This document shows, one piece after another, positions 25,081 through 39,868 of a DNA stretch of 64,000 bases; the first letter of the stretch is position 1; the number at the start of each line of letters is the position of its first letter. The notes below the pieces were generated by a model. That model was not told the origin of the DNA, made no database searches, and saw only the letters and a list, made by a program, of their open reading frames with translations. The stretch is from an uncultured Dehalococcoidales bacterium (GTDB lineage: Bacteria > Chloroflexota > Dehalococcoidia > GIF9 > UBA5629), in NCBI GenBank assembly GCA_964437795.1, contig CAYTIC010000001.1:86864-150863 (forward strand), in the 5' to 3' direction. The translations under genes and the position numbers were made by a program.

Positions 25081-26184
25081 TTAACCCTTAGTTAGTTCGC
25101 TCAAAGCTGAAAGAAGGCTGGTATTCAACTGCCGCCAATCGCGTGGCGGTACCGGGGCGTTATTCCTTGCTACCAGCCTCAACGATCCCGTCGGGCAGGT
25201 AGAGTTGCATAGCCCGCAGCCGATGCACTTGCTATTATCGAATAATAATTCGTCGTCGACGACCGTCAAAGCTTCCATGGGGCATCGCTCCACGCAATCG
25301 CCGCAGGTGATGCAGCTTTCTGCGTCAAACGAGGTAATAAACCCGGAAACGGCCGCGGAGCCTTTCATGTTATATTTCTTCATGCTCTGCAGTATGCCGC
25401 AGTGGCAGGAGCAGCAGTTACAAACGAACTGAACATATTTACTCATGTTGCTGGAACAGTGAACCAGGCCGGCCTCCTCAGTACGGCGCAGGATTGCCCT
25501 CGCCTCCTCTTTGCTGATCAGCCTGCCGAACTTCCTCTCGGCCATAAACCTGGCATCGGGTCCGAACCCCATGCAAACGTCCTTAGGCTTGGTGCAGGGG
25601 CGCCCCAATAGTTCGCCGTGGTGACGGCAGTAGCAGGTGCCCACGGCGATATACTCCGCTTTGTCTATGTATTCAGAGACCTTGTCATAGGTATGTATTT
25701 CAAAAGTCGCGGGTATCTCTTTTTCTACTGTTATCACGCGCGCAACGGGGAAGGGGATGGGTGTCACATCAGGGTCGGAACTCACTCTATCCAGGGCATG
25801 AAAATAGTCTTCGAAGAGGTACGCCAGCTTAACGGCCCGTTCGCTCACGTCGCCGCTGAGAAACTGCATCTCAAAAACGCCGGGCAACAGCGGCAACAGG
25901 CTGTAATAGCGGACGTCGTTTTTATCAAAGGTGTATACGAGGCCCTTGTCAGCCATCCTCTCAAGATGCGCTTGCACAGGAGCGGGAGCTTTACCCGCCT
26001 TCTCAGCGATTTCGGCAGCGGAAGCGGGAGTAATAGGCATGACCACCGCCAGATCTGCCTCTTCCTGTGAGAATAAATAATCGATAAGCGCAAAAAGTTC
26101 AGGGCTCTTGATAGCAGGCATCGATCCGCCCCGCATCTGAATGGCCACCCTGAGATTCTCATATTTATGATCCGGCATCGTCAT
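25081..26184 (-). CDS. Fe-S protein: N-terminal winged-helix-like region, a Cys-rich middle and a C-terminal 2x[4Fe-4S] ferredoxin domain
   Basis: 367 aa. CITCGDCVERCP and CIGCGLCNSTCP, plus CYCRHH..C..C and CNCCSCHC clusters. The N-terminal ...EIAEKAGKAPAPVQAHLERMADKGLVY looks like a wHTH. Confidence 0.55.
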   Translation of the reverse strand: MTMPDHKYENLRVAIQMRGGSMPAIKSPELFALIDYLFSQEEADLAVVMPITPASAAEIAEKAGKAPAPVQAHLERMADKGLVYTFDKNDVRYYSLLPLLPGVFEMQFLSGDVSERAVKLAYLFEDYFHALDRVSSDPDVTPIPFPVARVITVEKEIPATFEIHTYDKVSEYIDKAEYIAVGTCYCRHHGELLGRPCTKPKDVCMGFGPDARFMAERKFGRLISKEEARAILRRTEEAGLVHCSSNMSKYVQFVCNCCSCHCGILQSMKKYNMKGSAAVSGFITSFDAESCITCGDCVERCPMEALTVVDDELLFDNSKCIGCGLCNSTCPTGSLRLVARNNAPVPPRDWRQLNTSLLSALSELTKG

Positions 26185-26215
26185 ACCTCAACATTATTGA
26201 TTATCGGGAAATGGA

Positions 26216-26292
<77 letters not shown>

Positions 26293-26304
26293 GGACCACA
26301 TGGC

Positions 26305-26333
26305 ATTTTATCAACGGTAATATCGATAGTCAA
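26305..26333 (-). promoter_or_regulatory. sigma70-like promoter of tRNA-Val
   Basis: On the minus strand: TTGACT (26333-26328), 17-nt spacer, TAAAAT (26310-26305). It ends 12 nt upstream of the tRNA 5' end. Confidence 0.65.
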
Positions 26334-26360
26334 GAACAGAGAGTCTGCCACGGCGGGCGT

Positions 26361-26591
26361 CTATGTTTTGGTCGACAGCTTGGCGTTGCCCGTCAGCGAA
26401 ACGTGGACGTTGCTGCCGCACTTGGGGCAGGTCACTTCGATTGTGATGACCGGCTGGCGCATGACCCTTTCTATGAGCGTGGATACCATAGTATCGAGCT
26501 GGTCGATGCGCTTATACATCATCTCGAGGCGTTTTTCCATTTGAGCCAGCTTATCAAGCTGGTGCTCGGCTTCTTCGAATTTCTTATCCAT
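26361..26591 (-). CDS. hypothetical small protein (coiled-coil plus C-terminal half zinc ribbon)
   Basis: 76 aa. Helical heptads followed by CPKCGS. Confidence 0.4.
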   Translation of the reverse strand: MDKKFEEAEHQLDKLAQMEKRLEMMYKRIDQLDTMVSTLIERVMRQPVITIEVTCPKCGSNVHVSLTGNAKLSTKT

Positions 26592-26679
26592 CTCCCGCTA
26601 TCCGCTCTTTTACTCTACTAAAGAAATAGAGAGGAGAAATCGCGGATTCCTCCTCTCGGCAATTCCCTTTATCCCGCGT

Positions 26680-27003
26680 TCACAGGCTCTTTTCCTGGAC
26701 CCCCATGGAATTGAGCTCGTCCCGGTCTTCCTTGATCTGTGTGTCAAGCAGGCCGGTCATCTTGGATTCCAACCACTTCTTGTAGGCTTCCTTGGCCTGC
26801 GGTGAATTTCTAACTGCGATCTTGGCGGTCTCCCATTCCTCCACGAAGAGCTTCCCCAGCGTTTCGTCCTTAAGAGGGAACTCTACGTCCATCAACGCCT
26901 CTGCCCGCTCGATTATCCTGTTCATAACCGCCCTCTTGAGGCGGTCGATCGAAAGCAGCTCCTGATCTTCGTAAGGCCGTGAAACAAATTGCTCAGTTGC
27001 CAT
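26680..27003 (-). CDS. hypothetical protein
   Basis: 107-aa helical, acidic ORF. GGAGG-like sequence upstream (gaacggaggtcgtactg). Confidence 0.4.
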   Translation of the reverse strand: MATEQFVSRPYEDQELLSIDRLKRAVMNRIIERAEALMDVEFPLKDETLGKLFVEEWETAKIAVRNSPQAKEAYKKWLESKMTGLLDTQIKEDRDELNSMGVQEKSL

Positions 27004-27118
27004 CAGTACGACCTCCGTTCATGCTTTTACTCACCTTATAATATTCTGCTGATTATGCAATGTCAAGCCATATAAATATCTCGTCGTTGTGAAGGCATCG
27101 AAGCAATCCCAGAATGCT

Positions 27119-27147
27119 TTGACATCCCTATGGCTGCGGGCTACAAT
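27119..27147 (+). promoter_or_regulatory. sigma70-like promoter of tRNA-Gly(TCC)
   Basis: Consensus TTGACA (27119-24), 17-nt spacer, TACAAT (27142-47). The tRNA starts at 27160. Confidence 0.7.
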
Positions 27148-27159
27148 GAGTCACTGTTC

Positions 27160-27234
27160 GCGGGAGTAACTCAGCGGAAGAGTTCCTGCCTTCCAAGCAG
27201 GGTGTCGCGGGTTCGAATCCCGTCTCCCGCTCCA
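27160..27234 (+). tRNA. tRNA-Gly(TCC), CCA encoded
   Basis: Acceptor GCGGGAG/CTCCCGC, anticodon stem CCTGC/GCAGG with loop CTTCCAA, T arm GCGGG-TTCGAAT-CCCGT. Confidence 0.9.
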
Positions 27235-27683
27235 TAGATTGCGTTATAGAGTTCCGGTAAATGGGACGCCAGGTTATTATATTCCATCAGGCCCTGCAGG
27301 CAATTGTTACGCGCCAGGTCAATCATCTTATACGACAAGGACAATTTCATTCTCGCCGGTTGGTCGTCCTTCATCGTATACCCGAGCCAATAACGACTTC
27401 GGAACTCCGCGCCACCTGCGACGCGGCGGAGTATAAACTCTATGACGGCTTATTTTGCCGCCATGGTTTTATCTCTTAATTCCCGTGACTTGCTGTAAGG
27501 ACAAACTCCCTGTTTTCGTGAGGGTAGTGCCAGTCAACCATCTCACCAGATCCCTCATGTAGAACTTCCCTGGAAAAGCAACTCTTTTTCCGGTAGAACT
27601 TTTTTATTCGGGTAGAGATTGAAATCGATATTAACCGAATACTTTGATGCGGCTACGCATAGGAAATAGCCCAACCCTATTTT

Positions 27684-28472
27684 TCAATAAAAGACCGAAC
27701 CGGCGCATACATTAATTGCCTGTCCCGTTATGCCTTTCGCCTGATCAGACGCCAAATAAACCGCCGTATCGGCAATTTCTTCCGGCTCAATCAGCCGTCT
27801 CTGAATGGACATCGAAAGAACTTTTTCAGTAAGAACAGCTTCTCTCGTCAAGCCGGTGAGTCTTACAACCTCATCCAGGATCATTCCTTCCCCTGTCAAC
27901 ATATCTGTGTTTACAACACCCGGGCATATGGCATTAACAGTTATCCCGGATAAACCCAGAACTCCCAGTTCTGCTGCGAGTGTTCGCGTTAGGCCGATTA
28001 CCCCATGTTTGGATGCACAATAGGCAGAGTTTGTCACACTGGCCTGTTTGCCGGAAATCGAAGCTATATTAATAACTCTACCTTTACCAGCTTTGATTAT
28101 GTGCGGCATCACAGCCTTGGTAACGTTATATGTACCAAACAAATTTACTTCTATGGTATTACGCCAGATAAAGTCTTCTGATTCCCATAGAAAATAGCGC
28201 TTTCCTACAACGCCGGCGTTATTTATCAGGATTTCGATTTTCCCGTATTTGTCGATGATCTGTTGAATGCAGGACTGTATCTGCTCCGGTCGGGTAACGT
28301 CTAAAACGAGACCAAGTGTATTGTGCCCGATCTCAGTAGCGGTCTTTTGAATATCTTTGTTAACGTCGCCGATAACAACGGTTGCCCCTTCCCTTGCAAG
28401 TGCCGAAGCTATCTCCTTTCCAATGCCTCGATAGGCGCCGGTAACGAGCGCTACCTTACTGCTTAACATCAT
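27684..28472 (-). CDS. short-chain dehydrogenase/reductase (SDR)
   Basis: VALVTGAYRGIGKEIA (TGxxxGIG) and YCASK (YxxxK). Confidence 0.8.
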   Translation of the reverse strand: MMLSSKVALVTGAYRGIGKEIASALAREGATVVIGDVNKDIQKTATEIGHNTLGLVLDVTRPEQIQSCIQQIIDKYGKIEILINNAGVVGKRYFLWESEDFIWRNTIEVNLFGTYNVTKAVMPHIIKAGKGRVINIASISGKQASVTNSAYCASKHGVIGLTRTLAAELGVLGLSGITVNAICPGVVNTDMLTGEGMILDEVVRLTGLTREAVLTEKVLSMSIQRRLIEPEEIADTAVYLASDQAKGITGQAINVCAGSVFY

Positions 28473-28495
28473 TCGATATCCACCTCGATTATTGA

Positions 28496-29602
28496 TTATT
28501 TCACTTTGATCCTTCGTTTGGCATCAATCCCCATCAGTTTGGCCAGGTTAAGGCCGAATATCTTCCGGCGGTCTTCCTCAGTAATCGCCGGATAGCCGTA
28601 ATCCTTCTGCATGTCTTCAGGAATTTGAAATTCTCTCAATCCTTTAACCGCCACGCCCATTTGAACTGAAAATCCAGCGTAATCCGTGCCCCAAATAATC
28701 TTGTCGGGGCCAACCCAGCGCAACGCCTCACCGATAATCCTGGCGAATTTCCGCGGCTGTACTATGGCCCATGGTATTAAGAGCGAAAGGCAAGGATACA
28801 CGTTGGGATGCCCCATGGCCACCATGTTTAAGTCATCACAATACGGATAGCCCATATGGAACGCAACGATCTTCAGATTCGTGAAATCACGTGCCACGTC
28901 ATCGAGTTGGATGGGTAGGGCATACTTGCTCTTGCCAGGCGGGACCCAGCAAAAGCCCGTATGGATATCGAGCACAATGCCAAGTTCCTCAGCTTTCTGA
29001 TAGAACGGCCACAAATCTGGATCATTGATATAAGTGTCCTCAGGAGGATAAAACTTGAAAATCTTGGCGCCTTTTTCCTTAACCCAGTATTCGAGGTCCC
29101 AGATGGCGTTTTTAACTCCCCTGTGCTTTATTGGAGAAACATTTGGCTGGTACATGAACCTGTCAGGGTTAGATTCAACCACCTTGGCCATATCGCCGTT
29201 GGTCATCCAGCGGCTGCTGTACCCCGTCGTATCCATCATCGCCTCCGGCAGTAAACAGCCTATGTCCACGCCATACTTGTCCATCGAACGCAGCAGACTG
29301 GCAGGATCGGCGTTCTTTTCAATTTCCCATGGCTCGATCTCCTGAACTATTTCCGCAGGAGCTCCAGACATCAGAGGTCGGCCGATGCTCTCGATGGCTT
29401 TCCACCACATTTTCACGCCGGGATAATGATTGATTGGCCCCATATCGCCAATCAGATGTGATTCCGGATCAATTTTAAAATAATTGTCTTTTTCTACCTG
29501 TTTTGCTGCCACGTGTTCCTCCTTATAATTGCTTGATTTATTTAGCAATTGTTCGGCATAATTTCCCGTTGACACACCGGCATTTCTATACCGGTGTGTC
29601 AA
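28496..29602 (-). CDS. Amidohydro_2-family TIM-barrel hydrolase/decarboxylase-like enzyme
   Basis: 368 aa. ...DIHTGF..., ...AFHMGYPY... and WGTDYA resemble the metal-ligand pattern of the PF04909-type family. Confidence 0.6.
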   Translation of the reverse strand: MTHRYRNAGVSTGNYAEQLLNKSSNYKEEHVAAKQVEKDNYFKIDPESHLIGDMGPINHYPGVKMWWKAIESIGRPLMSGAPAEIVQEIEPWEIEKNADPASLLRSMDKYGVDIGCLLPEAMMDTTGYSSRWMTNGDMAKVVESNPDRFMYQPNVSPIKHRGVKNAIWDLEYWVKEKGAKIFKFYPPEDTYINDPDLWPFYQKAEELGIVLDIHTGFCWVPPGKSKYALPIQLDDVARDFTNLKIVAFHMGYPYCDDLNMVAMGHPNVYPCLSLLIPWAIVQPRKFARIIGEALRWVGPDKIIWGTDYAGFSVQMGVAVKGLREFQIPEDMQKDYGYPAITEEDRRKIFGLNLAKLMGIDAKRRIKVK

Positions 29603-29611
29603 GCGGATAGG

Positions 29612-30886
29612 CTACATATGGAAAGGTGGGGGTGGGGGAGGTAATTTAGCATAAGTATGAGGCACTACAGGTCCGACCCTCCTCTTGGGGAACAATTCCG
29701 GGTCATATTGTTCGTAGCCAAGTTCGGGATTGACCGAGCATCTCGGGGGATTGCCTACAACCGTGATCAGACACATGCAGTCTCTTTTACACTCAGCTAC
29801 TTTCTTGCCCGCTTTAACTTTATTCGGCCAATCTGGATCGGCCAGTGCCTGTCTGCCCAGCGATATCATGTCGCAAGCACCTTCGGACAAGGCTTTTTCG
29901 GCAACGTCCAGATTATTGACACCGGGGACAATGACCGGTATTTTAAGTACTGATTTAATTTCCTTTGCTTCCTTGAGAAGATGTTCTTCTACATGCTTGA
30001 TTGAACCCGGGGCGAAATAGTCGAGCGCCTCGTATGATCCGTCTGACAAATGGAGATAGGCAACGCCCAATTCTTCCACTTTCTTGGCCACGATTTTGAC
30101 TTCGTCTATCGTGATACCATCGGGCATGTGTTCCTGTGCGCTCATCCGTATGCCAACCGGCACGGCATCGCCCACGGCCGTGATCGCAGCTTGAGTGACC
30201 TCCAGCAGGAACCTCATCCGGTTTTCCAGGGAACCGCCGTACATATCGGTCCTCTTGTTGGAGCGGGGAGACAGGAATTGGTGTTCCAGGTAACCGTGGG
30301 GCGCATGGATCTCGATGCCGTCAAAACCAGCATAGACGGCCCTTCTGCAGGCCATGCCATACTCGTACACTTCTCTCTTGATCTCCTCGATCGTCATTTC
30401 CCTGGGGACCGGATTGTGTTGAGATATCTCCGCAACAACGCCAGGCATAGTTAGCAGGAAATCCACCATTTTCTTAGGCATTCTCTCTGGTGTCATTTCC
30501 ATAGGTATACGGGAAGGTGCCGGTGACGGCGATTTATCCAGTGCATGCCCCTGCCTGCCGAACCCGATGCTCAACTGGCAAAATATCTTGGCTCCAAAGT
30601 TGTGAACGGCCTGCGTCATCATGTACAGGCCGGGAACGAAGGACTCGTCATATAATAAAAGATTACGGTGATATACGTAGGGGGCCGCCAGCTTTGTTGC
30701 AATCACTGCGCCCGTAATAATCAGGCCAAAGCCGCCCTTCGCCCTGCGCGCAAGGTGCGCCATATCCTGCTGTGTGGCATACCCATCCTGCGTGGAATAT
30801 GTCATGTTCATAGGGGCCAGTGCAATCCGGTTGGGAATTTCCACATGCCTGATATGGATTGGATCAAAAAGTCCTTTCTCTGCCAT
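29612..30886 (-). CDS. Old-Yellow-Enzyme-family FMN oxidoreductase with a C-terminal Cys cluster (enoate/dienoyl-CoA-reductase-like N-terminal module only)
   Basis: Start moved to MAEKGLFDPI. NRIALAPM, HAPHGYLEHQFLSPRSNKRTDMYGGSLENR and C-x3-C-x-C-x10-C near the C-terminus. No FAD/NAD(P) domain. Confidence 0.7.
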   Translation of the reverse strand: MAEKGLFDPIHIRHVEIPNRIALAPMNMTYSTQDGYATQQDMAHLARRAKGGFGLIITGAVIATKLAAPYVYHRNLLLYDESFVPGLYMMTQAVHNFGAKIFCQLSIGFGRQGHALDKSPSPAPSRIPMEMTPERMPKKMVDFLLTMPGVVAEISQHNPVPREMTIEEIKREVYEYGMACRRAVYAGFDGIEIHAPHGYLEHQFLSPRSNKRTDMYGGSLENRMRFLLEVTQAAITAVGDAVPVGIRMSAQEHMPDGITIDEVKIVAKKVEELGVAYLHLSDGSYEALDYFAPGSIKHVEEHLLKEAKEIKSVLKIPVIVPGVNNLDVAEKALSEGACDMISLGRQALADPDWPNKVKAGKKVAECKRDCMCLITVVGNPPRCSVNPELGYEQYDPELFPKRRVGPVVPHTYAKLPPPPPPFHM

Positions 30887-30950
30887 TTGTAACCTCTCAA
30901 AATTTCTTAATATTATTGATATAGATAAATTTAGCACCGATTGCGATATA

Positions 30951-31367
30951 CTATGCGCTTGTTTGCGGCTTGAAAACGGGCAGGCTGATTAAATCAGTGC
31001 AATCCCTGAAAGTTACCTCCACATCCATGCCTATTTTTACGTCTTCCGGCTTGCACTCAACTATGTTGGTCATCATATGAATGCCTTCTTTCAGTTCAAC
31101 TATAGCCAATACATAGGGAAGATCAGGTGCAAAGACCGGCTCAACGCCACCCATCGTAACCGTCATTGCATGGACCTTGCCCCTTCCGCTGACTTCTTCC
31201 CAATCAAGGTTGCTGGACCAGCAGTAAGGACACACCTTGCGAGGATAAAAGATCAGCTTGCCGCAGTCACTGCATTTCTGCATGACCAGTCTGTGCTGTT
31301 TGGTTGCTTCCCAGAACTTCTTGCTCCATGGAGTAATCTCCGGAAGCGGCTTGGTATATGTATTCAT
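30951..31367 (-). CDS. DUF35-type OB-fold/zinc-ribbon protein
   Basis: 138 aa. CSDCGKLIFYPRKVCPYCWS rubredoxin-like knuckle followed by an OB-fold region. 4-nt overlap with the thiolase-like gene. Confidence 0.75.
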   Translation of the reverse strand: MNTYTKPLPEITPWSKKFWEATKQHRLVMQKCSDCGKLIFYPRKVCPYCWSSNLDWEEVSGRGKVHAMTVTMGGVEPVFAPDLPYVLAIVELKEGIHMMTNIVECKPEDVKIGMDVEVTFRDCTDLISLPVFKPQTSA

Positions 31368-32545
31368 TTAAGGTCCCTCCCAAATATCTCAATAATCATA
31401 TTCATGCCTGATCCGCCAGAACAGTTCATCAGTACGTGTTTGCAGTTCTTAACCTGCCGTTCACCGGCCTTACCCATCAGCTGGCGCGCAGTTTCCACCA
31501 GGTAGGCAAAACCTACGCCAGAACCCGTGTGACCGCGGGACAGGGCGTCACCGATGGTAGAGCACGGCAGCTTCCCTCCCGGCCAGGTATTGCCTTCCGC
31601 AATGAAACGCACGGCTTCCTTGCCATCCTTGCACACGCCAAGAGCCTCCAGTAGAACGGGCATAAGGATCGGATACGCGCAGTAAAGTTCCAGTATGTTC
31701 ATATCCTTGATCGTAAGCCCAGCCTGTTTGAATGCATCCTGGGCAGCCTGCTTAGACTGCATTAACATCGTGTCATCGGTTCGCTGGGTCATTGTTGCCT
31801 GTAAATAGCGGGCGCCTTCTCCAAGTTTATACACAGGTGTCTTGCAGATCCTTTTCGCTATCTCGGGTGAAGTTACAATCAGTGCCCCACCGCCGTCAGC
31901 CAGCATATTGCACTCCATAGAATGCAATGGTGTGCTGATCATCTTGGTTGACAGCACCTTCTCCACGGTCAGTGGTTTGCGGTACATGGCATTGGGGTCG
32001 AGCTCTGCCCACTTCCTGAAGGCCACAGGAATTGAGGCCATCTCTTCGGCTGTTATGCCATAGTGTTGCATAAAACGGGCCGTATTCATGGCCACCATGC
32101 CGTTATATGTGGTGCCAAAGGGATATTCCCATTCCATGGACATCCCGGCTGTGGCAAAGGTATGGATAGTCACGTTGGGGTCAATGCTGGTGTACTTTGA
32201 AGCATGCATGATCAGAACAATCCTGGCGATGCCGTTGGTTATCCAGTGTTCCGCCATTCTGAGCAGGTTGGCGGATGTTGAACCTCCCCCATTCACTGTT
32301 ACCATGTCCCGGCATCCTTTAAACCCCAGCTCCTCCGGCAGCTTGCCAAAGACCAGTTCGGAGTCAAGCTTGGGCTGGCCTACTGCCGGTGAACAGATGA
32401 CTCCTTCTATCTCATTTTTATTAATTCCGGCGTCATTGACAGCTTGCATGCACGAGTCATAGATAATGTCCCATTCATGCCGCTCGGGATACCACCCCGT
32501 AGGAACCTCACCTATGCCTACAATTGCTATTTTGCCTTTACTCAT
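31364..32545 (-). CDS. SCP-x/thiolase-superfamily protein lacking the nucleophilic cysteine (Ltp2-like aldolase candidate)
   Basis: 393 aa with thiolase-like architecture (...SRGHTGSGVG..., NCSGGSG). At the position where the paralog 41386..42633 has NVENACAGAS, this protein reads TVNGGGSTSA. Confidence 0.65.
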   Translation of the reverse strand: MSKGKIAIVGIGEVPTGWYPERHEWDIIYDSCMQAVNDAGINKNEIEGVICSPAVGQPKLDSELVFGKLPEELGFKGCRDMVTVNGGGSTSANLLRMAEHWITNGIARIVLIMHASKYTSIDPNVTIHTFATAGMSMEWEYPFGTTYNGMVAMNTARFMQHYGITAEEMASIPVAFRKWAELDPNAMYRKPLTVEKVLSTKMISTPLHSMECNMLADGGGALIVTSPEIAKRICKTPVYKLGEGARYLQATMTQRTDDTMLMQSKQAAQDAFKQAGLTIKDMNILELYCAYPILMPVLLEALGVCKDGKEAVRFIAEGNTWPGGKLPCSTIGDALSRGHTGSGVGFAYLVETARQLMGKAGERQVKNCKHVLMNCSGGSGMNMIIEIFGRDLK

Positions 32546-32611
32546 AAATCACGATCCTCCATTTAATAATCTATTGCATGATTACTTCGTTAGCCTGCTG
32601 AAATTACCTCA

Positions 32612-33430
32612 CTATTTGGCCTTCCATACCGGCTGTCTTTTCTCCATGAAGGCTATAGGGCCCTCAACAGCGTCCTCGGTCCCCGCGACAAGACTGCCAG
32701 CCGACCTTTCCAGCGCTAATGCAGCATCGATGTCGGCAATTTCAATACAATTGTTAAAAACCATCTTTGCCATCCTGACCGCCACCGGCGATTCGCCGGC
32801 TATCTTTTTGGCTATTTCCATTACGGTCTTTTCCAGTTCACTGAAGGGTACAACCTTGTTTACAATCCCCAGTTCAAGCGCCTCGTGCGCTGTAATGCGC
32901 CCGGCAGTGAGCAGAAGCTCCTTGGCCTTACGCACCGGCATCGACCGGGCAAAACGCACGATTCCACCCGACCCCGGCAGGATACCCAGGCCCACCTCGG
33001 TGATGCCAAACATGGCATTCTCTGAAGCTATGATGAAGTCACATGCCAACGCATATTCGAGGCCGCCGGCATAGCAGTAACCGTTTACAGCCGCGATGAT
33101 CGGTTTTTCCATCCTCTCCATCAGTCGGTGCGATTCATAACACACGTTGCGCAGATAATTGTAAGTGCCTAAAGATGTACCTATTCCCTCAAATGGAATA
33201 GAAAAATCCTGCCCCGAGGAGAACGCTTTGTCACCACTGCCCGTCAAAATGACGACCCTCGTCCCGCTATCGGCCTGGGCGTCAAGCAGGCATTCACGCA
33301 ACTCGATAAGCATCGGCGCATGCATAGCATTACGCCTTTGCGGGTTGTTGAAAACAATGCGGGCGATGAAATCCTTCTTCTCATAGATTATGTACTTGTA
33401 ATTAGCTTCAGCCATTTTGACCTCCATCAA
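32612..33430 (-). CDS. enoyl-CoA hydratase/isomerase (crotonase family)
   Basis: RRNAM, AAVNGYCYAGGLEYALACD, ITEVGLGILPGSGG. The start may be the internal ATG (MAEANYKY). Confidence 0.8.
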   Translation of the reverse strand: MMEVKMAEANYKYIIYEKKDFIARIVFNNPQRRNAMHAPMLIELRECLLDAQADSGTRVVILTGSGDKAFSSGQDFSIPFEGIGTSLGTYNYLRNVCYESHRLMERMEKPIIAAVNGYCYAGGLEYALACDFIIASENAMFGITEVGLGILPGSGGIVRFARSMPVRKAKELLLTAGRITAHEALELGIVNKVVPFSELEKTVMEIAKKIAGESPVAVRMAKMVFNNCIEIADIDAALALERSAGSLVAGTEDAVEGPIAFMEKRQPVWKAK

Positions 33431-33442
33431 TGTAACTAATAC

Positions 33443-34606
33443 TTAAAAGGATCTCGGCAGCCCCATCAGTTCACCGATGAAATTGCGGGCCATCTCGTTG
33501 CTGATCGGTGCGAAGGTGAACTGACGGGCGTCACGGAAGTAGCGTTGTATATCGCTCTCCGCCATCACGCCGGCGCCCGCGAAAATCTCCATGGCATTGG
33601 TCGTAGTCTTAACAGCGGCCTCAGACGCGCACACCTTGGCGGCTGCAGCTTCGAAATAGCATGGCTGATCCTTTGCAAACAACCATGCCGCTTTGTAGGT
33701 CATCAGCCTGGCAAGCTCGATCTCGATCGACATGTCGGCAAGCCAGTGCTGCAACACCTGGAATTGTCCGATAGGCTTGCCGAAGGCAGTCCTGGTCTTG
33801 GCATAATCCAGGGCAAGTTCAAACGCACCCTGGGCAAGGCCCACTGTCGTGGCCGCACAGACGATCCGTTCGGGATTTAGCAGTGTAATCAACTGGAAGA
33901 ACCCGTTGTTGAGTTGCCCCAGCAGGTTCTCTTTAGGCACCCTGACATCTGTGAAAAATACTTCATTGGCGCCTGAACCCCGCATACTGATTTTATGCAG
34001 CGGACGAATCTCGACACCCGGGCTCTTGAGATCTATGATCAGAAGTGACATTGCGCGATGCCGTTTGGCAGCATCTTTATTTGTGATCACCAGGGTCATA
34101 ATATAAGGTGCCACATGTGCTCCTGTGATGTATATCTTTTGACCATTTACTACAAAGTTATCACTGTCTTCTACGGCCGTGGTCCTTAAAGCGCCCAGCA
34201 AATCTGTCCCACCGCCCGGCTCGGTGAGACCGATGCAGAAACCTGTTTCAGCTTTGGCCATCTTTGGCAGGTATTCTTTCTTCTGCTTTTCATTTCCGTG
34301 GGCCTCAATCAGCCGGACGAACATGCCGCCGCCCAGGCCAAATGCTGCGGCCGGAGAACGGCGGCTCACCTCTTCGATGATGATAATCTCATCGACGAAA
34401 TCCCCCCCGGTCCCGCCATACTCGCCTGGGAGCTGGCAAGAGGTAAGGCCTAATTCAGCAGCCTTGAGGTGTATTTGATACGGCATCCAGGACATGCTTT
34501 CATCGGCATCCCACTTGCGGACAAATTCGATTGGCAGCTCACGATCGACGAACTCGCGCACGGTTGCGCGCAACATCTTTTGGGCTTCACTGAATTCAAA
34601 ATCCAT
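33443..34606 (-). CDS. acyl-CoA dehydrogenase
   Basis: 387 aa. GLTEPGGGTD, and the C-terminal catalytic region ...IFAGAGVMAESDIQRYFRDARQF. Confidence 0.8.
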   Translation of the reverse strand: MDFEFSEAQKMLRATVREFVDRELPIEFVRKWDADESMSWMPYQIHLKAAELGLTSCQLPGEYGGTGGDFVDEIIIIEEVSRRSPAAAFGLGGGMFVRLIEAHGNEKQKKEYLPKMAKAETGFCIGLTEPGGGTDLLGALRTTAVEDSDNFVVNGQKIYITGAHVAPYIMTLVITNKDAAKRHRAMSLLIIDLKSPGVEIRPLHKISMRGSGANEVFFTDVRVPKENLLGQLNNGFFQLITLLNPERIVCAATTVGLAQGAFELALDYAKTRTAFGKPIGQFQVLQHWLADMSIEIELARLMTYKAAWLFAKDQPCYFEAAAAKVCASEAAVKTTTNAMEIFAGAGVMAESDIQRYFRDARQFTFAPISNEMARNFIGELMGLPRSF

Positions 34607-34654
34607 TTTTCTCCTTTATACAACTATAAATGTGAGCAACTAAAAAGGGCCGCA

Positions 34655-36253
34655 TTATTGTTTGACTGGCTTGGCCTTGTATTTCTCCCTCACATCTTTG
34701 CGCAGCAATTTGCCCACCGCGGTCTTGGGGAGAGGATCCGGACTGAACTCGATGATTTTGGGACATTTATAGCCGGCCAGGTGCCTCCTGGTAAAATCAA
34801 TAATCTCTTTTTTTAATTCCAGCTCTTTGCCTTTGTATTTATTACTATAGTCTGTCTTCAGATAGATTTCTGCCAATACCTTTTCACCCCACTCCAGGTC
34901 CGGCACCCCGATCACGATTGCTTCTGAAACCGCGGGGTGCTTGTACAAAACATCCTCCACCTCAAACGGGTAAACCTTTTCCCCGCCGCTTTTTATCATA
35001 TCCGAAGCCCGGTCGGCCAGATATATAAACCCGTCCTCGTCAAAACTGCCTATATCTCCTGTATAATACCAGTCTCCTTTTTTTACTTTCCTGGTTTTAG
35101 CTTGATCTTTCCAGTATTCCTTCATGGTTGACTTGCTTTTAACTATGACTTCGCCGATCTCTCCCGTTTTGCATTCATTGCCCTTGTCATCCACGATCTT
35201 TATCTCGCTGACGAGGGAAGGCCTGCCAACCGATTTAAGCCTGCGTAACTCTTTTTCTGTCCCCTCAATCACGTGATCCTTAGCCAGAAAGGTAGTCCAG
35301 GGTCCACCCTCGGTTGCACCATAACCCTGCGCAAGGATTCTTCCAAATTTCCGAATACACTGCTTGAGTACTTCGGAAGGCATGGGGGCACCGGCATAAG
35401 AGAAGGACGTAATACTGCTGAGATCATATTTATCAATGTCGGGGTCGTTGACAAGCCAAAAATACACGGTGAGCACAGCATTCATATGGGTAATCTTTTC
35501 CTTTTGGATCGCTTCAAAAATCTTCTTAAGATCAGGACGGTTGACCATAACGACCTTATCACCGGTGAAGTGGAGAGTCAGTATTGGCCATAACGAAATA
35601 TGGAAAGCAGGTAAAATAAAAAGGGTAGCGTCATCATCGCTTGTAGCTATGCCGGTTTTCAGGTTACTGAGGACGCATCCCAATGTATAGGTCATAAGAC
35701 TACGATGCGTTAAAACTGCCCCCTTGGGTAATCCGGTGGTTCCCCCGGTATACATGAGCATGGCAGTATCGCTTTCTTTTATAGCAACCTTGGGTTCTTC
35801 GGGTGATCCCTTTTCAACCAGGTCCTCATAGGAAATCATGCCCGGGACCTTGTCAACGGCGCTGATGTAATATTTGATATTGTTCAAAGCCGGCTTTAGA
35901 GCCTCTACCGTATCTTTGTACTCAGGGCCGATAATCAGGCCGACGGAATCGGAATGGAGGATGATGTGTTGAAGCTCGCTGGGATGCAATCTGAAATTTA
36001 AAGGTACAGGAATTATGCCTGTCTTTGCCATGGCATAGTAGAGCTCTACAAACCTGTGGCAGTTCTCCATCAATATGGCAACGTGGTCACCCTTATTCAG
36101 TCCCATACCTTTCAAAGAGTTCGCAAGCCGGTTAATCCTCTCGTTAAATTGTTTCCAGGTATACCTTACTTCACCATAACCGGAGCACACCATGCAGATT
36201 TTATTCGGGTCTAGCCTGGACCACCTGGTTGGGATGTCACCAAGTATTTCCAT
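34655..36253 (-). CDS. AMP-dependent acyl-CoA synthetase/ligase
   Basis: MLMYTGGTTGLPKG, GYGATEGG, WYYTGD, GKLLRKDVR. Confidence 0.8.
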   Translation of the reverse strand: MEILGDIPTRWSRLDPNKICMVCSGYGEVRYTWKQFNERINRLANSLKGMGLNKGDHVAILMENCHRFVELYYAMAKTGIIPVPLNFRLHPSELQHIILHSDSVGLIIGPEYKDTVEALKPALNNIKYYISAVDKVPGMISYEDLVEKGSPEEPKVAIKESDTAMLMYTGGTTGLPKGAVLTHRSLMTYTLGCVLSNLKTGIATSDDDATLFILPAFHISLWPILTLHFTGDKVVMVNRPDLKKIFEAIQKEKITHMNAVLTVYFWLVNDPDIDKYDLSSITSFSYAGAPMPSEVLKQCIRKFGRILAQGYGATEGGPWTTFLAKDHVIEGTEKELRRLKSVGRPSLVSEIKIVDDKGNECKTGEIGEVIVKSKSTMKEYWKDQAKTRKVKKGDWYYTGDIGSFDEDGFIYLADRASDMIKSGGEKVYPFEVEDVLYKHPAVSEAIVIGVPDLEWGEKVLAEIYLKTDYSNKYKGKELELKKEIIDFTRRHLAGYKCPKIIEFSPDPLPKTAVGKLLRKDVREKYKAKPVKQ

Positions 36254-36404
36254 TACATTACCTCCACATTATTCATTGCTATTTGATCTGGCCGCCTCAG
36301 TTAAATGTATCTATACCGTTACCCGATTCAATATGACAATTTTCCGCTTCCACATATATAACAACAAGCCACCCAAAGCTTGAGTTAAACCTGATTTTAG
36401 TTTC

Positions 36405-36965
36405 TTATTTTTTCGGCCTGATAGATCTGTGAGGTTCCTTAAAACCTGATATCTGCCGCATAGCCTCTTCCGCCCATTCCAGGAAAAGCTTATCCTGCTT
36501 TATCGCCAGATCACCGATAAGCAGCCAATAGAGTACGTCCAATTCGCTGCCTTTCAAGTTTTTCTCTATCGCAATGGTAGCTTCTGTCTCATAATATTGA
36601 ACTTCATTTTTAATCTGTGCAGCATAGGATCTTATGTTCGCAATCATATATTTTTTGTCGACACGACTTGCATACCACATTTGCATCAAATGGGGTTCAC
36701 GACTTGCCTCCACCTTCATAGGGGTTTTCAACCACTTCTCCAGTACACTACGTCCCGACTTTGTAATATGAAAAACATTTTTATCTGGATATTTCTTTTG
36801 ATTAACCCGCTTGTACTCCACCAACCCGTCCTCTGCCATCCCATTAAGTTGCCTGTATACAATACTTAACGTAGGCCTGACTGTTTTAAAAAACATCTTG
36901 TGAAGCTGATATCCTGATTTTGGCCCATAGCTCAGAAACCCCAGTAATCCATGTTTCAACGACAT
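36405..36965 (-). CDS. PadR-family transcriptional regulator
   Basis: 186 aa. The N-terminal wHTH LLGFLSYGPKSGYQLHK...VYRQLNGMAEDGLVE is typical of PadR. First gene of the island operon. Confidence 0.75.
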   Translation of the reverse strand: MSLKHGLLGFLSYGPKSGYQLHKMFFKTVRPTLSIVYRQLNGMAEDGLVEYKRVNQKKYPDKNVFHITKSGRSVLEKWLKTPMKVEASREPHLMQMWYASRVDKKYMIANIRSYAAQIKNEVQYYETEATIAIEKNLKGSELDVLYWLLIGDLAIKQDKLFLEWAEEAMRQISGFKEPHRSIRPKK

Positions 36966-36993
36966 ATTAATCTCTCACCAGTTAAATTCTTAG

Positions 36994-37053
36994 TTCAGTA
37001 CTGTACTAGTACAGTACTGAACATATACTACTACTGTTAAATTTTGTTGTCAA
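36994..37053 (-). promoter_or_regulatory. padR promoter with an overlapping perfect 28-bp palindromic operator
   Basis: On the minus strand: TTGACA (37053-48), 17 nt, TAGTAT (37030-25). Then TTCAGTACTGTAC-TA-GTACAGTACTGAA (37021-36994), which is its own reverse complement, covers the expected TSS 29 nt before the padR ATG. Confidence 0.55.
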
Positions 37054-37327
37054 GTCCATTCATTATGTTTATTAGGCGGGTACGGGGGTACTTCTTGACG
37101 CTGTTTTTCAGCTTTGATATATTGGCGAGTTTTACGGTTGTTCCACTTCTGGGGGATGCTTCATTTCCATGCAAAATAAAGCCAAATACTTGCCCCACAG
37201 GCAAGTGTGCTAAAATTAGGCAAGTAAAGTGATGGGAGGGCTGAAAACAGCGACAACCTGCCTGCTTGAATTTTCAGGCGTTTTTTTCGGATTATTACGA
37301 TCAAAATCGGTTTAAAATCGGGTTATT

Positions 37328-37373
37328 CCTTCCAAGCAGTGTGTCGCGGGTTCGAATCCCGTCTCCCGCTCCA
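37328..37373 (+). repeat. displaced 3' fragment of tRNA-Gly(TCC); distal att-type repeat of island 2
   Basis: 45/46 nt identical to 27189-27234 (G27201 versus T37340). Confidence 0.85.
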
Positions 37374-37457
37374 ACAGTTTCTAAATCTGCCCTGTGCGAC
37401 AGATAATTTATGTCTGAACACCCTGACCGAAAAGCTTCCTCCAATATTTTCAATATA

Positions 37458-38549
37458 CTAACCATAGAATCCGAAATCACTAATAGCCTTTGTCAGCATG
37501 TAGAAATTGTACGGCGGCGTTGACGGCGGCGTCTCACAGGCCGTCATGAGGATATACCCATTGGGAGCATCTTTGCCGGCCTGGATACATCCTTTAGCGG
37601 CCTGATAGACCTCATCGGCAGTCCCGCCGGCAACAAGTGACGTGCTGAGATTGCCGGCAATAATATGGTTTGAACCGAAGTATTTTATTCCATCCTCAAG
37701 GCTGACCTGCTGCCCCAGGCTGACGATACCGGGATCGCCCATAGGCACCTGGCTCCATAACGGCAGGTTCTTGTTCTGCTCTCCACATATATGGCATAAA
37801 ATATACTTAACGCCCAATCCCAGTATCTCCTTGTGCAGTTTATGCTGGTCGGGCAACACGAATTCTTCGAAATGTCGTGGCGATATAATGGAGTTGGCGG
37901 CAAGGGGTTCCCATATTTGCACCAGCAGTCGCTTTGTGCCGAAAACCTTGACCCATAGCCTGGCCGCGCTCAAGATATGATCGGCCGCCAGTTGCACAAC
38001 CCTGTGAACCGCTTCCGGCTCCTTGATGATCCACTTGCACAGATTTGTTACACCACAGATGTTGCCTGCCGTGGTAAATGCGCCGCCCACTACCAGGCTG
38101 ATAAGACAGCCCTGGCTTTCCTGTATTCTGGAAAACTCCAGCGCCTTTGGAAGACAGCCTGCTGTCTGCGGATCCGGAAGCCTGAGCTTATCTATGTCAT
38201 CAAGCGACTGTACAGGGTAGCGTTTACTTCGGGGCGATTGGACCGAATCGCTGTTCGGGAACTCAACTTCCCCGCCGAACTCGCTCGTCCCATAGACAGC
38301 ACTGCCGAAAAATGGATCCTGGTCGTATCCGTACATTTGCTGCGTCCAAAGCTGGGCATCGAAACTCCGCACAGGTTCGCTGTACACCGTACCTATAGGA
38401 TACCCGACGTTTTTAGCGCTGAAACCCAGTGAAAAGGGGAAAAAAGGCACACGGTCGATTTGTTTCCCGTTCAAAAGAGAGTTTACCCGTTCGATGGATG
38501 TCATTTTATCCCTGTTATTCATTAAATTCAGGCTAGTATCCATCAACAC
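37458..38549 (-). CDS. uroporphyrinogen-decarboxylase-family protein (MtaA/CmuA-like methyltransferase type)
   Basis: 363 aa. IDRVPFFPF... N-terminus and overall URO-D-like pattern. No corrinoid protein is adjacent. Confidence 0.55.
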   Translation of the reverse strand: MLMDTSLNLMNNRDKMTSIERVNSLLNGKQIDRVPFFPFSLGFSAKNVGYPIGTVYSEPVRSFDAQLWTQQMYGYDQDPFFGSAVYGTSEFGGEVEFPNSDSVQSPRSKRYPVQSLDDIDKLRLPDPQTAGCLPKALEFSRIQESQGCLISLVVGGAFTTAGNICGVTNLCKWIIKEPEAVHRVVQLAADHILSAARLWVKVFGTKRLLVQIWEPLAANSIISPRHFEEFVLPDQHKLHKEILGLGVKYILCHICGEQNKNLPLWSQVPMGDPGIVSLGQQVSLEDGIKYFGSNHIIAGNLSTSLVAGGTADEVYQAAKGCIQAGKDAPNGYILMTACETPPSTPPYNFYMLTKAISDFGFYG

Positions 38550-38923
38550 CTCGCACTTGCTAATCTTATCTCAGCTTTATCCAATACATATTCTCTCAAA
38601 TGGGGCATTTTCTATCAATACTTAGGCCTATAAACTGCAGGAATAAACACTCTGCCCAACCAGCGATCAACCTTAATTTTATAGCTAACAAACCCGAGAC
38701 TATAACAGCTTTAAATGAATCCCGCATAAAACCCGGTAATCCTTGCTGCGCAAGGACTCTAATATTAGATACTGTCGGGTACACTGACTCTTTTGTGATT
38801 GCTGTATTCCAAGCGTATAATTCTAAATATCCGTTGATGACCCTGATTGATGCGGTTGGCGAAGTGCAAAACGAAGACAAAATATTCCCCTGAAATACAG
38901 TCTATATAGGAGGTTCAAAAACT

Positions 38924-39424
38924 ATGAACACCCCTGAAGAAAAACAGAAACGCGAAAAGCCAGTACTTGACTTGCCGGACATAAACGAAGTGGCGGACAA
39001 GTTATTAGAACAGGGTAAAATATCGAATATGCAGGCTGCCCAGCTTAAAATGTGGTATTCAGCCATGCCTGATATAAATTCCGGCAGCGCAAAATTTGAA
39101 GCCTGGAAGAAAGCGCGGCCCGATATAGATGTACCGGGACTATTCACCCCCGGAGAAGGATCAAAGCCAATACTTGATTTGCCGAGCTTGAGTGAAATGG
39201 CGGAAAAGATGGCCAAAGATGGTGTAAAGCCTATCCTTGATATGCCGGACATGAACGAAGTGGCGGATAAGCTGTTTGAACAGGGCAAAATATCCAATAT
39301 GCAGGCTGCCCAGATCAAAATGTGGTATTCAGTCAAGCCGGATAAGAATGCGGGCCTGGCGAAATTTGAAGCCTGGAAGAAAGCGCATCCTGCTATAGAT
39401 ATTCCCGGCCTGTTCCCGGAGTAG
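38924..39424 (+). CDS. hypothetical protein built from an internally duplicated 63-aa unit
   Basis: Strong RBS TAGGAGGT. Residues 12-74 and 102-164 are near-identical (KP[VI]LD[LM]PD[IM]NEVADKL.EQGKISNMQAAQ.KMWYS...AKFEAWKKA.P.ID.PGLF), with a partial third copy at residues 81-101. Confidence 0.6.
   Translation: MNTPEEKQKREKPVLDLPDINEVADKLLEQGKISNMQAAQLKMWYSAMPDINSGSAKFEAWKKARPDIDVPGLFTPGEGSKPILDLPSLSEMAEKMAKDGVKPILDMPDMNEVADKLFEQGKISNMQAAQIKMWYSVKPDKNAGLAKFEAWKKAHPAIDIPGLFPE
38957..39415 (+). repeat. tandem intragenic duplication (two 189-nt units 270 nt apart plus a partial unit)
   Basis: The DNA of 38957-39145 and 39227-39415 aligns with high identity by eye (for example gaagtggcgga.aag, atatgcaggctgcccag, aaatttgaagcctggaagaaagcgc). 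Confidence 0.7.
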
Positions 39425-39504
39425 GCAAACTGACCCGGCAACTGTAGCGAAAATTAAGTCCACTGGATAGCCCAGCCATGGTTAATAATGGCCGGTTGCG
39501 AAAT

Positions 39505-39807
39505 TCATTCTCCCAGTGGTTTGCCGCTGATAAGGTAGAAAATCAGCGACGCAATCGTAAATAATACCGGTACACTCAGGACCGCAGCAATCACTATTAA
39601 AGCCACCAACCAAAAGCCCTTCGGTTTAAATCTCAGTATTACCCCTATTATGCCGAGGACGAGGCCTGCGATAAAGATAAGCAGGCCTATGATGTCCGTA
39701 TCTATACCAAAGTAATGATAGAGCGGAATGACCAGCAGGAATGTGACTATCCCTGCCGCCATTATTATCAGGGCCGCGGTTATCAGCTTTCCAAATCGCT
39801 TCACCAT
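39505..39807 (-). CDS. small integral membrane protein (3 TM)
   Basis: 100 aa, almost entirely hydrophobic helices. Confidence 0.5.
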   Translation of the reverse strand: MVKRFGKLITAALIIMAAGIVTFLLVIPLYHYFGIDTDIIGLLIFIAGLVLGIIGVILRFKPKGFWLVALIVIAAVLSVPVLFTIASLIFYLISGKPLGE

Positions 39808-39868
39808 ATCATCCTTCCTGTTATCTTTCTAATTACCTTCTTCCGCCTGTAACACGAAAACGGTATAT

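Follow-up and report, generated by a model that had tools for sequence, protein, structure and literature searches.

A cysteine-less thiolase-fold protein coupled to DUF35 in an uncultured Dehalococcoidales bacterium: a probable CoA-ester retro-aldolase within a gene set shared by distant anaerobes

We analysed a 64,000-nt stretch from an uncultured Dehalococcoidales bacterium (assembly GCA_964437795.1, contig CAYTIC010000001.1, positions 86,864 to 150,863; this whole stretch is called the window below), focusing on two overlapping genes in an operon whose members all lie on the minus strand. The first (31364..32545, -) is an open reading frame (ORF) for a 393-aa protein of the SCP2/archaeal type of the thiolase fold, matched by Pfam Thiolase_C_1 and devoid of the nucleophilic cysteine; we propose it as the catalytic subunit of an aldolase. 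The second (30951..31367, -) encodes a stand-alone DUF35 protein of 138 aa, with a rubredoxin-like zinc ribbon and an OB fold according to Pfam, and is proposed as the structural partner subunit. By analogy with the characterised enzymes of this kind, the complex of the two is probably a CoA-ester retro-aldolase, not a thiolase, a reading that we favour with some reserve.

The loss of the nucleophile can be placed precisely. The ORF contains KGCRDMVTVNGGGSTSANLLRM, in which residues 85-89 read NGGGS (32279..32293, -), and the cysteine that thiolases carry at the N-terminus of helix N-alpha-3 is absent. The preliminary description of this DNA had held that the acyl-accepting Cys is replaced by Gly, and three independent alignments agree on Gly88: the Cys of a paralogue in the window (VNVENACAGAS; 41386..42633) falls on Gly88 in a MAFFT alignment of 242 sequences, as do, in phmmer alignments, the nucleophilic Cys of the P. 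furiosus thiolase 7YVY (EAACASG) and that of the benzoylsuccinyl-CoA thiolase BbsB, 7PXP (QSACSAG). Gly89 of the aldolase Sal (9MYR) also aligns to Gly88 by phmmer. We defined the family of the thiolase-like protein as 120 clusters, 54-96% identical to it, each with a Thiolase_C_1 match only. Gly88 is kept in 119 of these 120 clusters, so the cysteine loss is fixed and is not a sequence error; the adjacent Gly87 is invariant. Pfam finds Thiolase_C_1 alone in the 393-aa protein (8.6e-35) and no Thiolase_N, which the paralogue matches at 2.1e-16. Among the 120 nearest 50%-identity cluster representatives, 100 are missing the nucleophilic Cys.

Two side observations belong here. In one family cluster of the 120, a natural G88C variant, position 88 is Cys and Y-x-A-Y, Asp333 and His339 are unchanged. 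The paralogue (41386..42633, -) is a Cys-containing thiolase of the SCP2/archaeal type, lying between genes for a short-chain dehydrogenase/reductase (SDR; 40590..41351) and an AMP-ligase (42655..44211). Thiolases of this type are usually paired with a DUF35 gene; none for the paralogue was found anywhere in the window.

No other cysteine is likely to take the place of the lost one. An invariant Cys was sought across the family clusters and none was found; C32, C78, C212, C289 and C375 all vary, on which ground we rejected each as the nucleophile, even if 93-97% of the clusters have C78, C32 and C212. C78, in the KGCRD stretch that had been raised earlier as a possible occupant of the nucleophile position, does not fall there: it precedes Gly88 by ten residues, at the far end of the beta-strand and within an insertion absent from most relatives, and 4 of 121 clusters have Val instead. 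C212, replaced by Gly in nine clusters, is likewise found in true thiolases and Ltp2 and is therefore inherited, not a replacement nucleophile; C32 is replaced by Thr, Val or Ser in six. The positions of the acid/base Cys of thiolases, in the HDCF motif and the C-terminal CxG loop, are occupied by the invariant Ala290 and by the variable residue 375 (T, A, S or C). Two further assignments were tried and rejected: Cys375 as the classical CxG acid/base Cys, given that only 11 of 120 clusters carry Cys there, and Cys289 as a shifted equivalent of Sal Cys304, position 289 being G, L, C, I, V or A.

The remainder of the active site is rebuilt around this gap. In the aldolase Ltp2, Tyr294 of the YDHF motif is the base and Tyr344 the acid, and Sal uses Tyr302 and Cys304 of YDCY, the base role having been proven by mutation for Ltp2 Tyr294 and Sal Tyr302; SCP2 thiolases carry HDCF at this motif (PMC12329534). 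We read the phmmer alignments residue by residue, allowing for the 24-residue tag that shifts the numbering of chain 9MYR_A. The motif loop is LYCAY in the thiolase-like protein (residues 287-291; 31673..31687, -): Tyr288 corresponds to Ltp2 Tyr294 and Sal Tyr302, Ala290 to Ltp2 His296 and Sal Cys304, and Tyr291 to Sal Tyr305, all three being invariant in the family. The Asp of the motif is lost, position 289 being Asp in 107 of 120 related representatives and hydrophobic or Gly in this family. Residues 329-341, STIGDALSRGHTG (31523..31561, -), include His339, invariant in 120/120, which aligns to Ltp2 Tyr344 and Sal Gln352 and represents the GHP-loop His of thiolases, here in RGHTG. The near-universal NT[H/N]GG loop is S-T-I-G-D in this family, and two residues are specific to it, Asp333 (119/121 clusters) and Arg337 (121/121). 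Tyr147-Asn148 corresponds to Sal Gln161-Asn162, of which Gln161 belongs to the Sal oxyanion hole.

Set against the known signatures, the protein keeps the GHP-loop His of thiolases without their Cys. It shares with the Ltp2 type the Gly at the nucleophile position (Gly88) and the base Tyr (Tyr288), and has His339 and Ala290 in place of the acid Tyr344 and of His296 of YDHF; of the Sal-type Tyr302/Cys304 dyad it has the Tyr, the Cys304 position being the invariant Ala290. As judged from the alignments, the site would combine the aldolase base Tyr with the ancestral enolate-stabilising His, with neither known catalytic acid and with a new Asp/Arg pair. The alignment called for in the preliminary description, meant to confirm the missing Cys and to identify replacement acid/base residues, confirms the former and points to Tyr288 as a candidate base.

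The AlphaFold2 model of the thiolase-like protein (predicted local distance difference test score 86.8, predicted template modelling [TM] score 0.90) confirms the thiolase fold, with Foldseek TM-scores of 0.8-0.89 to 7YVY, 4U4E, 6ET9, 5AB7, 9MYR and 6OK1 and of 0.84-0.89 to 7YVY and 6ESQ; confidence is low in the loops 136-144 and 336-338. We discarded the fold search as a discriminator between aldolase and thiolase, all relatives having TM-scores of 0.8-0.89. In searches with the single sequence and with the family profile, respectively, the best solved relative is the Cys-less 4U4E (6.5e-45; 188 bits), followed, in the order of the single-sequence search, by the real thiolase 7YVY (2.6e-38; 179 bits), Ltp2 6OK1 (6.3e-35; 153 bits), Sal 9MYR (5.5e-34; 176 bits) and BbsB 7PXP (6.7e-31; 141 bits). 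In a scan of NCBIfam, every model scored below its cut-off, the best being PRK06158 at 245 bits vs 421; the Ltp2-type PRK07855 reached 180.5 bits vs 469. Membership in the Ltp2 or Sal clade is ruled out by the signature residues, by the NCBIfam cut-offs and by the ranking of 6OK1 below 4U4E and 7YVY. The label 'Ltp2-like retro-aldolase' of the preliminary description is accordingly kept in part: the idea of a Cys-less, DUF35-paired protein coupled to a hydratase and suited to non-thiolytic cleavage is supported, and membership in the Ltp2 group, whose YDHF His and Tyr344 are lacking here while the thiolase His is kept, is not.

When 1.84 billion cluster representatives were searched exhaustively, 6468 relatives emerged, and we took a census of the nucleophile, motif-first and GHP positions in the 119 nearest full-length representatives. 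The commonest signature, Gly/Tyr/His (56/119), is without a characterised example, while Gly/Tyr/Tyr (Ltp2), Gly/Tyr/Gln (Sal) and Cys/His/His (true thiolases) account for eight each. By these three aligned positions, the thiolase-like protein is a member of the largest Cys-less class, Gly/Tyr/His, with further changes of its own.

The partner gene is tied to the thiolase-like gene at the sequence level. The stop TGA of the latter overlaps the ATG of the DUF35 gene by 4 nt, as AAATGAATA, giving the ATGA at 31364..31367 (-); the preliminary description had likewise noted a 4-nt overlap with an OB-fold/zinc-ribbon gene. The ATGA overlap recurs in 16 of 16 related loci examined, with the signature motifs kept, and indicates translational coupling of what would be two subunits. 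The DUF35 protein contains CSDCGKLIFYPRKVCPYCWS and matches zf-ChsH2 (7.2e-17) and OB_ChsH2_C (1.4e-20) in Pfam; its four zinc-ribbon cysteines, C32, C35, C46 and C49 (31221..31274, -), are kept in 85-86 of 90 homologues. Its best solved relatives are the DUF35 domains of aldolase complexes, 9MYR_B (1e-26) and 6OK1_B (7.6e-24), with the thiolase partner BbsA at 7.4e-07. The catalytic and DUF35 subunits probably form a heteromer, alpha2-beta2 by analogy with Ltp2-ChsH2(DUF35) and Sal-Shy(DUF35).

In the window itself, DUF35 and hydratase are not fused; a hydratase-linked DUF35 is found in orthologous sets. In Desulforhabdus amnigena (isolate genome and metagenome-assembled genome [MAG]), the ORF after the thiolase-like gene is a single 424-aa DUF35-crotonase fusion, in which DUF35 leads through ~35 linker residues into a crotonase that has kept both catalytic Glu (locus L015, 5978..7252). 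The same uninterrupted, in-frame fusion occurs in four metagenome contigs (L017-L020), 81-87% identical, and at the more distant loci L021, L024 and L028, DUF35 and crotonase are adjacent, separate genes. In both aldolase systems characterised so far, the MaoC hydratase that makes the substrate has DUF35 at its C-terminus, this hydratase being ChsH2 in the case of Ltp2 and Shy in that of Sal (PMC12329534, PMC11321319). By comparison with these, the hydratase-DUF35 linkage appears to have arisen here with an unrelated hydratase fold, crotonase instead of MaoC. Such a fusion is the strongest contextual argument that the thiolase-like protein would take the product of the hydratase directly.

Upstream of the thiolase-like gene on the same strand lie genes for a crotonase-type enoyl-CoA hydratase (32612..33430; Pfam ECH_1, 2e-61) that retains both catalytic Glu (GGLEYA and ITEVG), an acyl-CoA dehydrogenase (33443..34606; Pfam), an AMP-forming acyl-CoA ligase (34655..36253; Pfam AMP-binding, 5.5e-83) and, upstream of the operon, a PadR-family regulator (36405..36965; Pfam PadR). 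The preliminary description had noted correctly that the dehydrogenase and hydratase precede the thiolase-like gene. Downstream of the DUF35 gene follow a short flavoenzyme of the old yellow enzyme (OYE) family, FadH-like (29612..30937; Pfam Oxidored_FMN, 1.1e-71), a metal-dependent Amidohydro_2 enzyme (28496..29602; 5.8e-33 in Pfam) and, at the operon end, a classical SDR (27684..28472; Pfam adh_short, 2.6e-57). Intergenic gaps of 9-100 nt make this run of genes read as one operon; scans for promoters and terminators across it gave nothing better than in shuffled sequence. The operon is flanked by genes for a URO-D-family protein, with a methyltransferase/decarboxylase-like fold (37458..38549, -), and for a protein with a winged helix and a 2x[4Fe-4S] ferredoxin domain (25081..26184, -), both of which are outside the gene set conserved in other genomes. 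GC content is 0.44-0.52 over window positions ~26000..40000 and 0.53-0.59 on either side.

We fetched related loci through relatives of three different operon proteins, and found a shared set of the thiolase-like protein, DUF35, crotonase, acyl-CoA dehydrogenase, OYE, Amidohydro_2 protein and ligase in shuffled order. Its carriers are MAGs of Dehalococcoidia/Chloroflexota, the window's own lineage (85-92% identity), together with a 6-Mb genome, Desulfomonilaceae, Dissulfuribacterales, Desulfobacterium, the cultured sulfate reducer Desulforhabdus amnigena and metagenome contigs. The low GC of the region and the occurrence of one gene set, variously ordered, in distant phyla are compatible with horizontal acquisition. 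The ligase is present in most of the related sets; in some, CoA-transferases, which we take to be of glutaconate-CoA-transferase size, replace or accompany it. The succession of ligase, dehydrogenase, hydratase and cleavage enzyme that had been put forward for the window recurs as this conserved set. A classical (PF02737-type) 3-hydroxyacyl-CoA dehydrogenase occurs in none of the related loci. Apart from the window, only L006, L008, L014 and L028 have an SDR in or next to the set; that of L008 is 78% identical to the window SDR and those of the other three are 33-51% identical, and the SDR is an accessory gene outside the conserved core. A PadR regulator also adjoins the set in L002, L007, L008 and L012. 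Some versions are accompanied by TRAP transporters or by DUF1302/DUF1329 outer-membrane proteins, which are linked to the uptake of carboxylates and hydrophobic compounds. A literature search on the gene combination and on cyclohexylacetate metabolism turned up nothing relevant.

The acyl-CoA dehydrogenase bears on the class of substrate. In 13 of 13 orthologues from related loci, F-A/S-P (F-A-P in the window copy) replaces the usual Y-E-G with its catalytic Glu, and a Glu lies instead in LNPER, likewise conserved in 13/13, at a position occupied by Gly, Asn or Gln in SBCAD, SCAD and others. This position is that of the catalytic base of isovaleryl-CoA dehydrogenase (IVD; Glu254) and of LCAD (Glu261). 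IVD accommodates a tertiary beta-carbon by means of a small residue in place of the Tyr, and the same small-residue argument has been made for the dehydrogenase ThnO (PMC11659651). An IVD/LCAD-type site, as read from the sequence, favours beta-branched or bulky beta-substituted substrates; it lends support to the earlier guess of branched or ring-attached side chains. Hydration of a beta-branched enoyl-CoA gives a tertiary alcohol that cannot be oxidised, and lyase cleavage is therefore needed. Attempts at substrate inference from the neighbouring genes were set aside, the OYE and dehydrogenase searches giving generic matches and the Amidohydro_2 search only distant ones.

The genes downstream of the pair have peculiarities of their own. 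The OYE-family protein, a core member of the conserved set, is an FMN TIM barrel with a C-terminal C-x3-C-x-C-x10-C (ECKRDCMCLITVVGNPPRC) and without the FAD/NAD(P)H domain. The four-Cys motif resembles the 4Fe-4S site of FadH, NCR and BaiCD-type enzymes, and the best NCBIfam matches (FadH/OYE mycofactocin type, BaiCD) are far below cut-off; translation may begin 17 codons after the listed GTG (MAEKGLF...). The Amidohydro_2 protein is the most conserved of the set, 74-87% identical between Chloroflexota, Desulfobacterota and Actinomycetota, with its operon partners in the Desulfobacterota and metagenome loci at 50-58% (thiolase-like), 52-63% (DUF35) and 34-47% (others; SDR up to 51%). It has the metal signature E-x-H / H / H / D, and in fold it bears no more than a distant resemblance to LigJ, LigY, LigW and ACMSD (TM at most 0.62). 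The listed TTG probably lies 30 codons ahead of the real start, because the 338-aa database protein P0283 is 100% identical. The best family matches of the window SDR are 3-hydroxybutyrate dehydrogenase and FabG.

We infer the reaction, residue roles, quaternary structure and substrate class as follows. The ligase, or in some genomes a CoA-transferase, would convert a carboxylic acid to its acyl-CoA; the acyl-CoA would be desaturated at the alpha,beta position to the 2-enoyl-CoA by the IVD/LCAD-type dehydrogenase, and this would be hydrated to the 3-hydroxyacyl-CoA by the crotonase. The thiolase-like/DUF35 complex would then carry out retro-aldol cleavage between C2 and C3, without oxidation or CoA, releasing acetyl-CoA and a ketone or aldehyde. 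Tyr288 may act as the base on the beta-hydroxyl, held by the Gly87-Gly88 backbone, while His339, the ancestral oxyanion-hole His of thiolases, would stabilise or protonate the acetyl-CoA enolate with the help of Tyr147/Asn148 and the G377-G378 loop. Tyr291, Tyr147/Asn148, Asp333 and Arg337 may shape the active site, and DUF35 would be non-catalytic, buttressing the catalytic subunit and tethering the hydratase. The likely substrate has a branch, or else a bulky or ring substituent, at the beta-carbon, such that its hydrated alcohol cannot or need not be oxidised. In favour of a retro-aldolase, every characterised Cys-less, DUF35-partnered member of the thiolase fold is one (PMC12329534). The resemblance to Ltp2 and Sal would lie in the Cys-less thiolase fold and the DUF35; what would be new is the catalytic signature, the crotonase instead of MaoC, and the anaerobic gene set.

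Several points weigh against this reading. The equivalent of neither Ltp2 Tyr344 nor Sal Cys304 is present as catalytic acid, the retained His of GH(T)G is a thiolase-like trait, and the genuine thiolase 7YVY is as close as Sal or Ltp2 by sequence, profile and fold. The DUF35-crotonase fusion is limited to one lineage, its copies being 81-87% identical. An SDR is present in the window operon and some others and a canonical thiolase adjoins the pair in L004/L005, so that an oxidative branch is possible. The gene set contains no aldehyde dehydrogenase to account for the fate of the carbonyl product, and the IVD/LCAD-type base is also found in enzymes for long straight chains.

Among the alternatives, the protein might use the enolate-stabilising half of the thiolase site for some other non-thiolytic CoA-ester chemistry, which we consider unlikely though deserving attention; candidates are decarboxylation of malonyl-type or beta-carboxy CoA esters, synthetic aldol or Claisen-type condensation, retro-Claisen hydrolysis and PhlABC-like C-acyl transfer. 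The oxyanion-hole His339 and the GG loops are indeed kept, the set includes a decarboxylase/hydratase-type Amidohydro_2 protein, and some genomes have family-I CoA-transferases typical of oxo- and dicarboxylic acids. The Cys-less relative TbSLP shows weak malonyl-CoA decarboxylase activity, although Sal is without it (PMC12329534), and PhlC-type acyl transfer needs the Cys that is missing here. Acetone induces in Desulfotomaculum arcticum an 'acetyl-CoA acetyltransferase', a DUF35 protein and an enoyl-CoA hydratase, a trio that would fit aldol addition of acetyl-CoA to a ketone (PMC8084838). Against such chemistry, however, the invariant Tyr288 matches the aldolase base, and both the pairing of dehydrogenase with hydratase and the fusion of hydratase to DUF35 speak for a 3-hydroxyacyl-CoA as substrate.

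That the protein is still a thiolase, acting after SDR oxidation of the 3-hydroxyacyl-CoA through an unconventional nucleophile (C78, C212, C32 or a residue supplied by the partner), seems to us very improbable. The window operon does end in an SDR that resembles 3-hydroxybutyrate dehydrogenase/FabG, the three cysteines are widespread in the family, and His339 is the nucleophile-activating residue in thiolases; but none of the candidate Cys is invariant, C78 being off-site in an insertion and C212 inherited, the acid/base positions are Ala290 and the variable residue 375, most versions of the gene set are missing the SDR, and the DUF35 cysteines are zinc ligands. We likewise give little credence to a pseudoenzyme, in which a dead thiolase-fold scaffold would, with DUF35, organise the hydratase and other enzymes of the pathway. 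All canonical catalytic Cys are lost, an organising role would fit the hydratase fusion, and DUF35 is a known scaffold that bridges the archaeal thiolase and HMG-CoA synthase (PMC12329534). Yet invariant polar residues (Y288, Y291, D333, R337, H339 and N148) are spread over five active-site loops, the pattern expected of a working site, and most genomes' set would be left with no C-C cleaving step.

Returning to the retro-aldolase, a wider and more tentative reading joins these strands: the protein could represent a third independently rewired type of thiolase-fold aldolase and carry out the cleavage in a seven-gene pathway that is widespread among anaerobes and shared between them horizontally; this we consider possible, with the balance leaning against it. 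In such a scheme, the Tyr288/His339 pair may work together with the new Asp333-Arg337 pair, the near-universal motif Asp having been lost. Dehalococcoidia and Desulfobacterota may thereby degrade beta-branched or ring-substituted acids to acetyl-CoA and a ketone, by a route that may dispense with oxygen, with biotin/ATP-dependent carboxylation and with an AtuA-like lyase, and the FeS-OYE and the ultra-conserved Amidohydro_2 protein may process the released ketone.

Thousands of genes in this superfamily part are annotated 'acetyl-CoA acetyltransferase' or 'thiolase family protein', only two of the enzymes without the nucleophilic Cys have been characterised, both from aerobic steroid degraders, and the window family belongs to the commonest signature, which has no characterised member. 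If the aldolase assignment holds, a systematic misannotation would be corrected, a new catalytic solution would be added to a well-studied fold, and a key step would be assigned in a conserved pathway of uncultivated subsurface Chloroflexota and sulfate reducers. It would also give an anoxic route for beta-branched and alicyclic acids, bearing on the turnover of isoprenoids, naphthenic acids and hydrocarbon metabolites in sediments. An aldolase role for a Cys-less, DUF35-coupled thiolase homologue would come as no surprise to a specialist; the distinct site, the independent hydratase fusion and the breadth of the Gly/Tyr/His class are what add value, and the cultured carrier D. amnigena makes the question testable.

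Two characterised aldolases offer the closest functional comparison. TcLtp2-ChsH2(DUF35), the steroid C3 side-chain aldolase of Thermomonospora curvata (6OK1), shares the thiolase fold, the Gly at the nucleophile position, the motif-loop Tyr and a DUF35 partner, which is obligatory in Ltp2, and is fed by a hydratase physically linked to DUF35; Ltp2 cleaves a tertiary beta-hydroxyacyl-CoA without oxidation. Identity is only ~27-29%, however, with Y-x-A-Y vs YDHF, His339 vs Tyr344 and STIGD vs NTHGG, and DUF35 is free or crotonase-fused here, whereas in the Ltp2 system it is the C-terminal domain of a MaoC hydratase. Ltp2 belongs to steroid clusters of aerobic actinobacteria; the thiolase-like/DUF35 pair is found in anaerobes, with no steroid genes nearby. 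CtSal-Shy(DUF35), the bile-acid C5 side-chain aldolase of Comamonas testosteroni (9MYR), matches at Gly89/Gly88, Tyr302/Tyr288 and Tyr305/Tyr291, releases acetyl-CoA from a 3-hydroxyacyl-CoA, and contains the DUF35 that is the best solved relative of the one in the window. It differs in Cys304 (here Ala290), Gln352 (His339) and the oxyanion-hole Gln161 (Tyr147), in a DUF35 with a Cys3His zinc site and fusion to a MaoC hydratase, and in its substrate, a secondary alcohol on a steroid.

The closest solved sequence overall (6.5e-45 by phmmer, 2.3e-54 by profile) is 4U4E, a putative thiolase from the chloroflexote Sphaerobacter thermophilus solved by structural genomics, which is likewise Cys-less (GGSS) and has the Tyr (YDSF) and the His (THPG), but retains the motif Asp and a GGG loop and was crystallised without a partner. 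The thiolases BbsAB (7PXP) and the archaeal acetoacetyl-CoA thiolase/DUF35/HMG-CoA synthase complex (6ESQ) have the same SCP2/archaeal subfold (TM-score 0.82-0.89 to the model) and a stand-alone DUF35, in gene pairs that occur in anaerobes; they keep the nucleophilic Cys and HDAF, though, and perform true thiolysis or Claisen condensation. TbSLP, the SCP2-thiolase-like protein of Trypanosoma brucei (5AB4-5AB7), is a Cys-less thiolase fold with the motif Tyr (YDCF), recently proposed to be an aldolase; unlike the window protein, it is without a DUF35 partner, keeps the motif Cys and is eukaryotic, with 22% identity. The ibuprofen enzymes IpfDE are reportedly a thiolase-like/DUF35 pair that removes a side chain; no residue-level information was found for them, and they serve as a lead only.

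The same chemical problem, a tertiary 3-hydroxyacyl-CoA in need of lyase cleavage, is met by HMG-CoA lyase and by the AtuA-like lyase ThnQS of the anaerobic naphthalene pathway, which is supplied by the acyl-CoA dehydrogenase ThnO, with a small residue before its catalytic Glu, and a hydratase (PMC11659651, PMC12016498). In the thn operon of strain N47, a 'metallo-dependent hydrolase', ThnN, adjoins ThnO (PMC12016498). We considered whether the 'novel lyase' of anaerobic naphthalene degradation is the enzyme described here, and this is ruled out, that lyase being the AtuA-like ThnQS (PMC12016498). The folds of ThnQS and HMG-CoA lyase are unrelated to the thiolase fold, and the thn pathway breaks a ring C-C bond adjacent to a carboxyl group. 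The naphthalene pathway solves the tertiary-alcohol problem with ThnQS, and the present gene set would therefore be a different solution.

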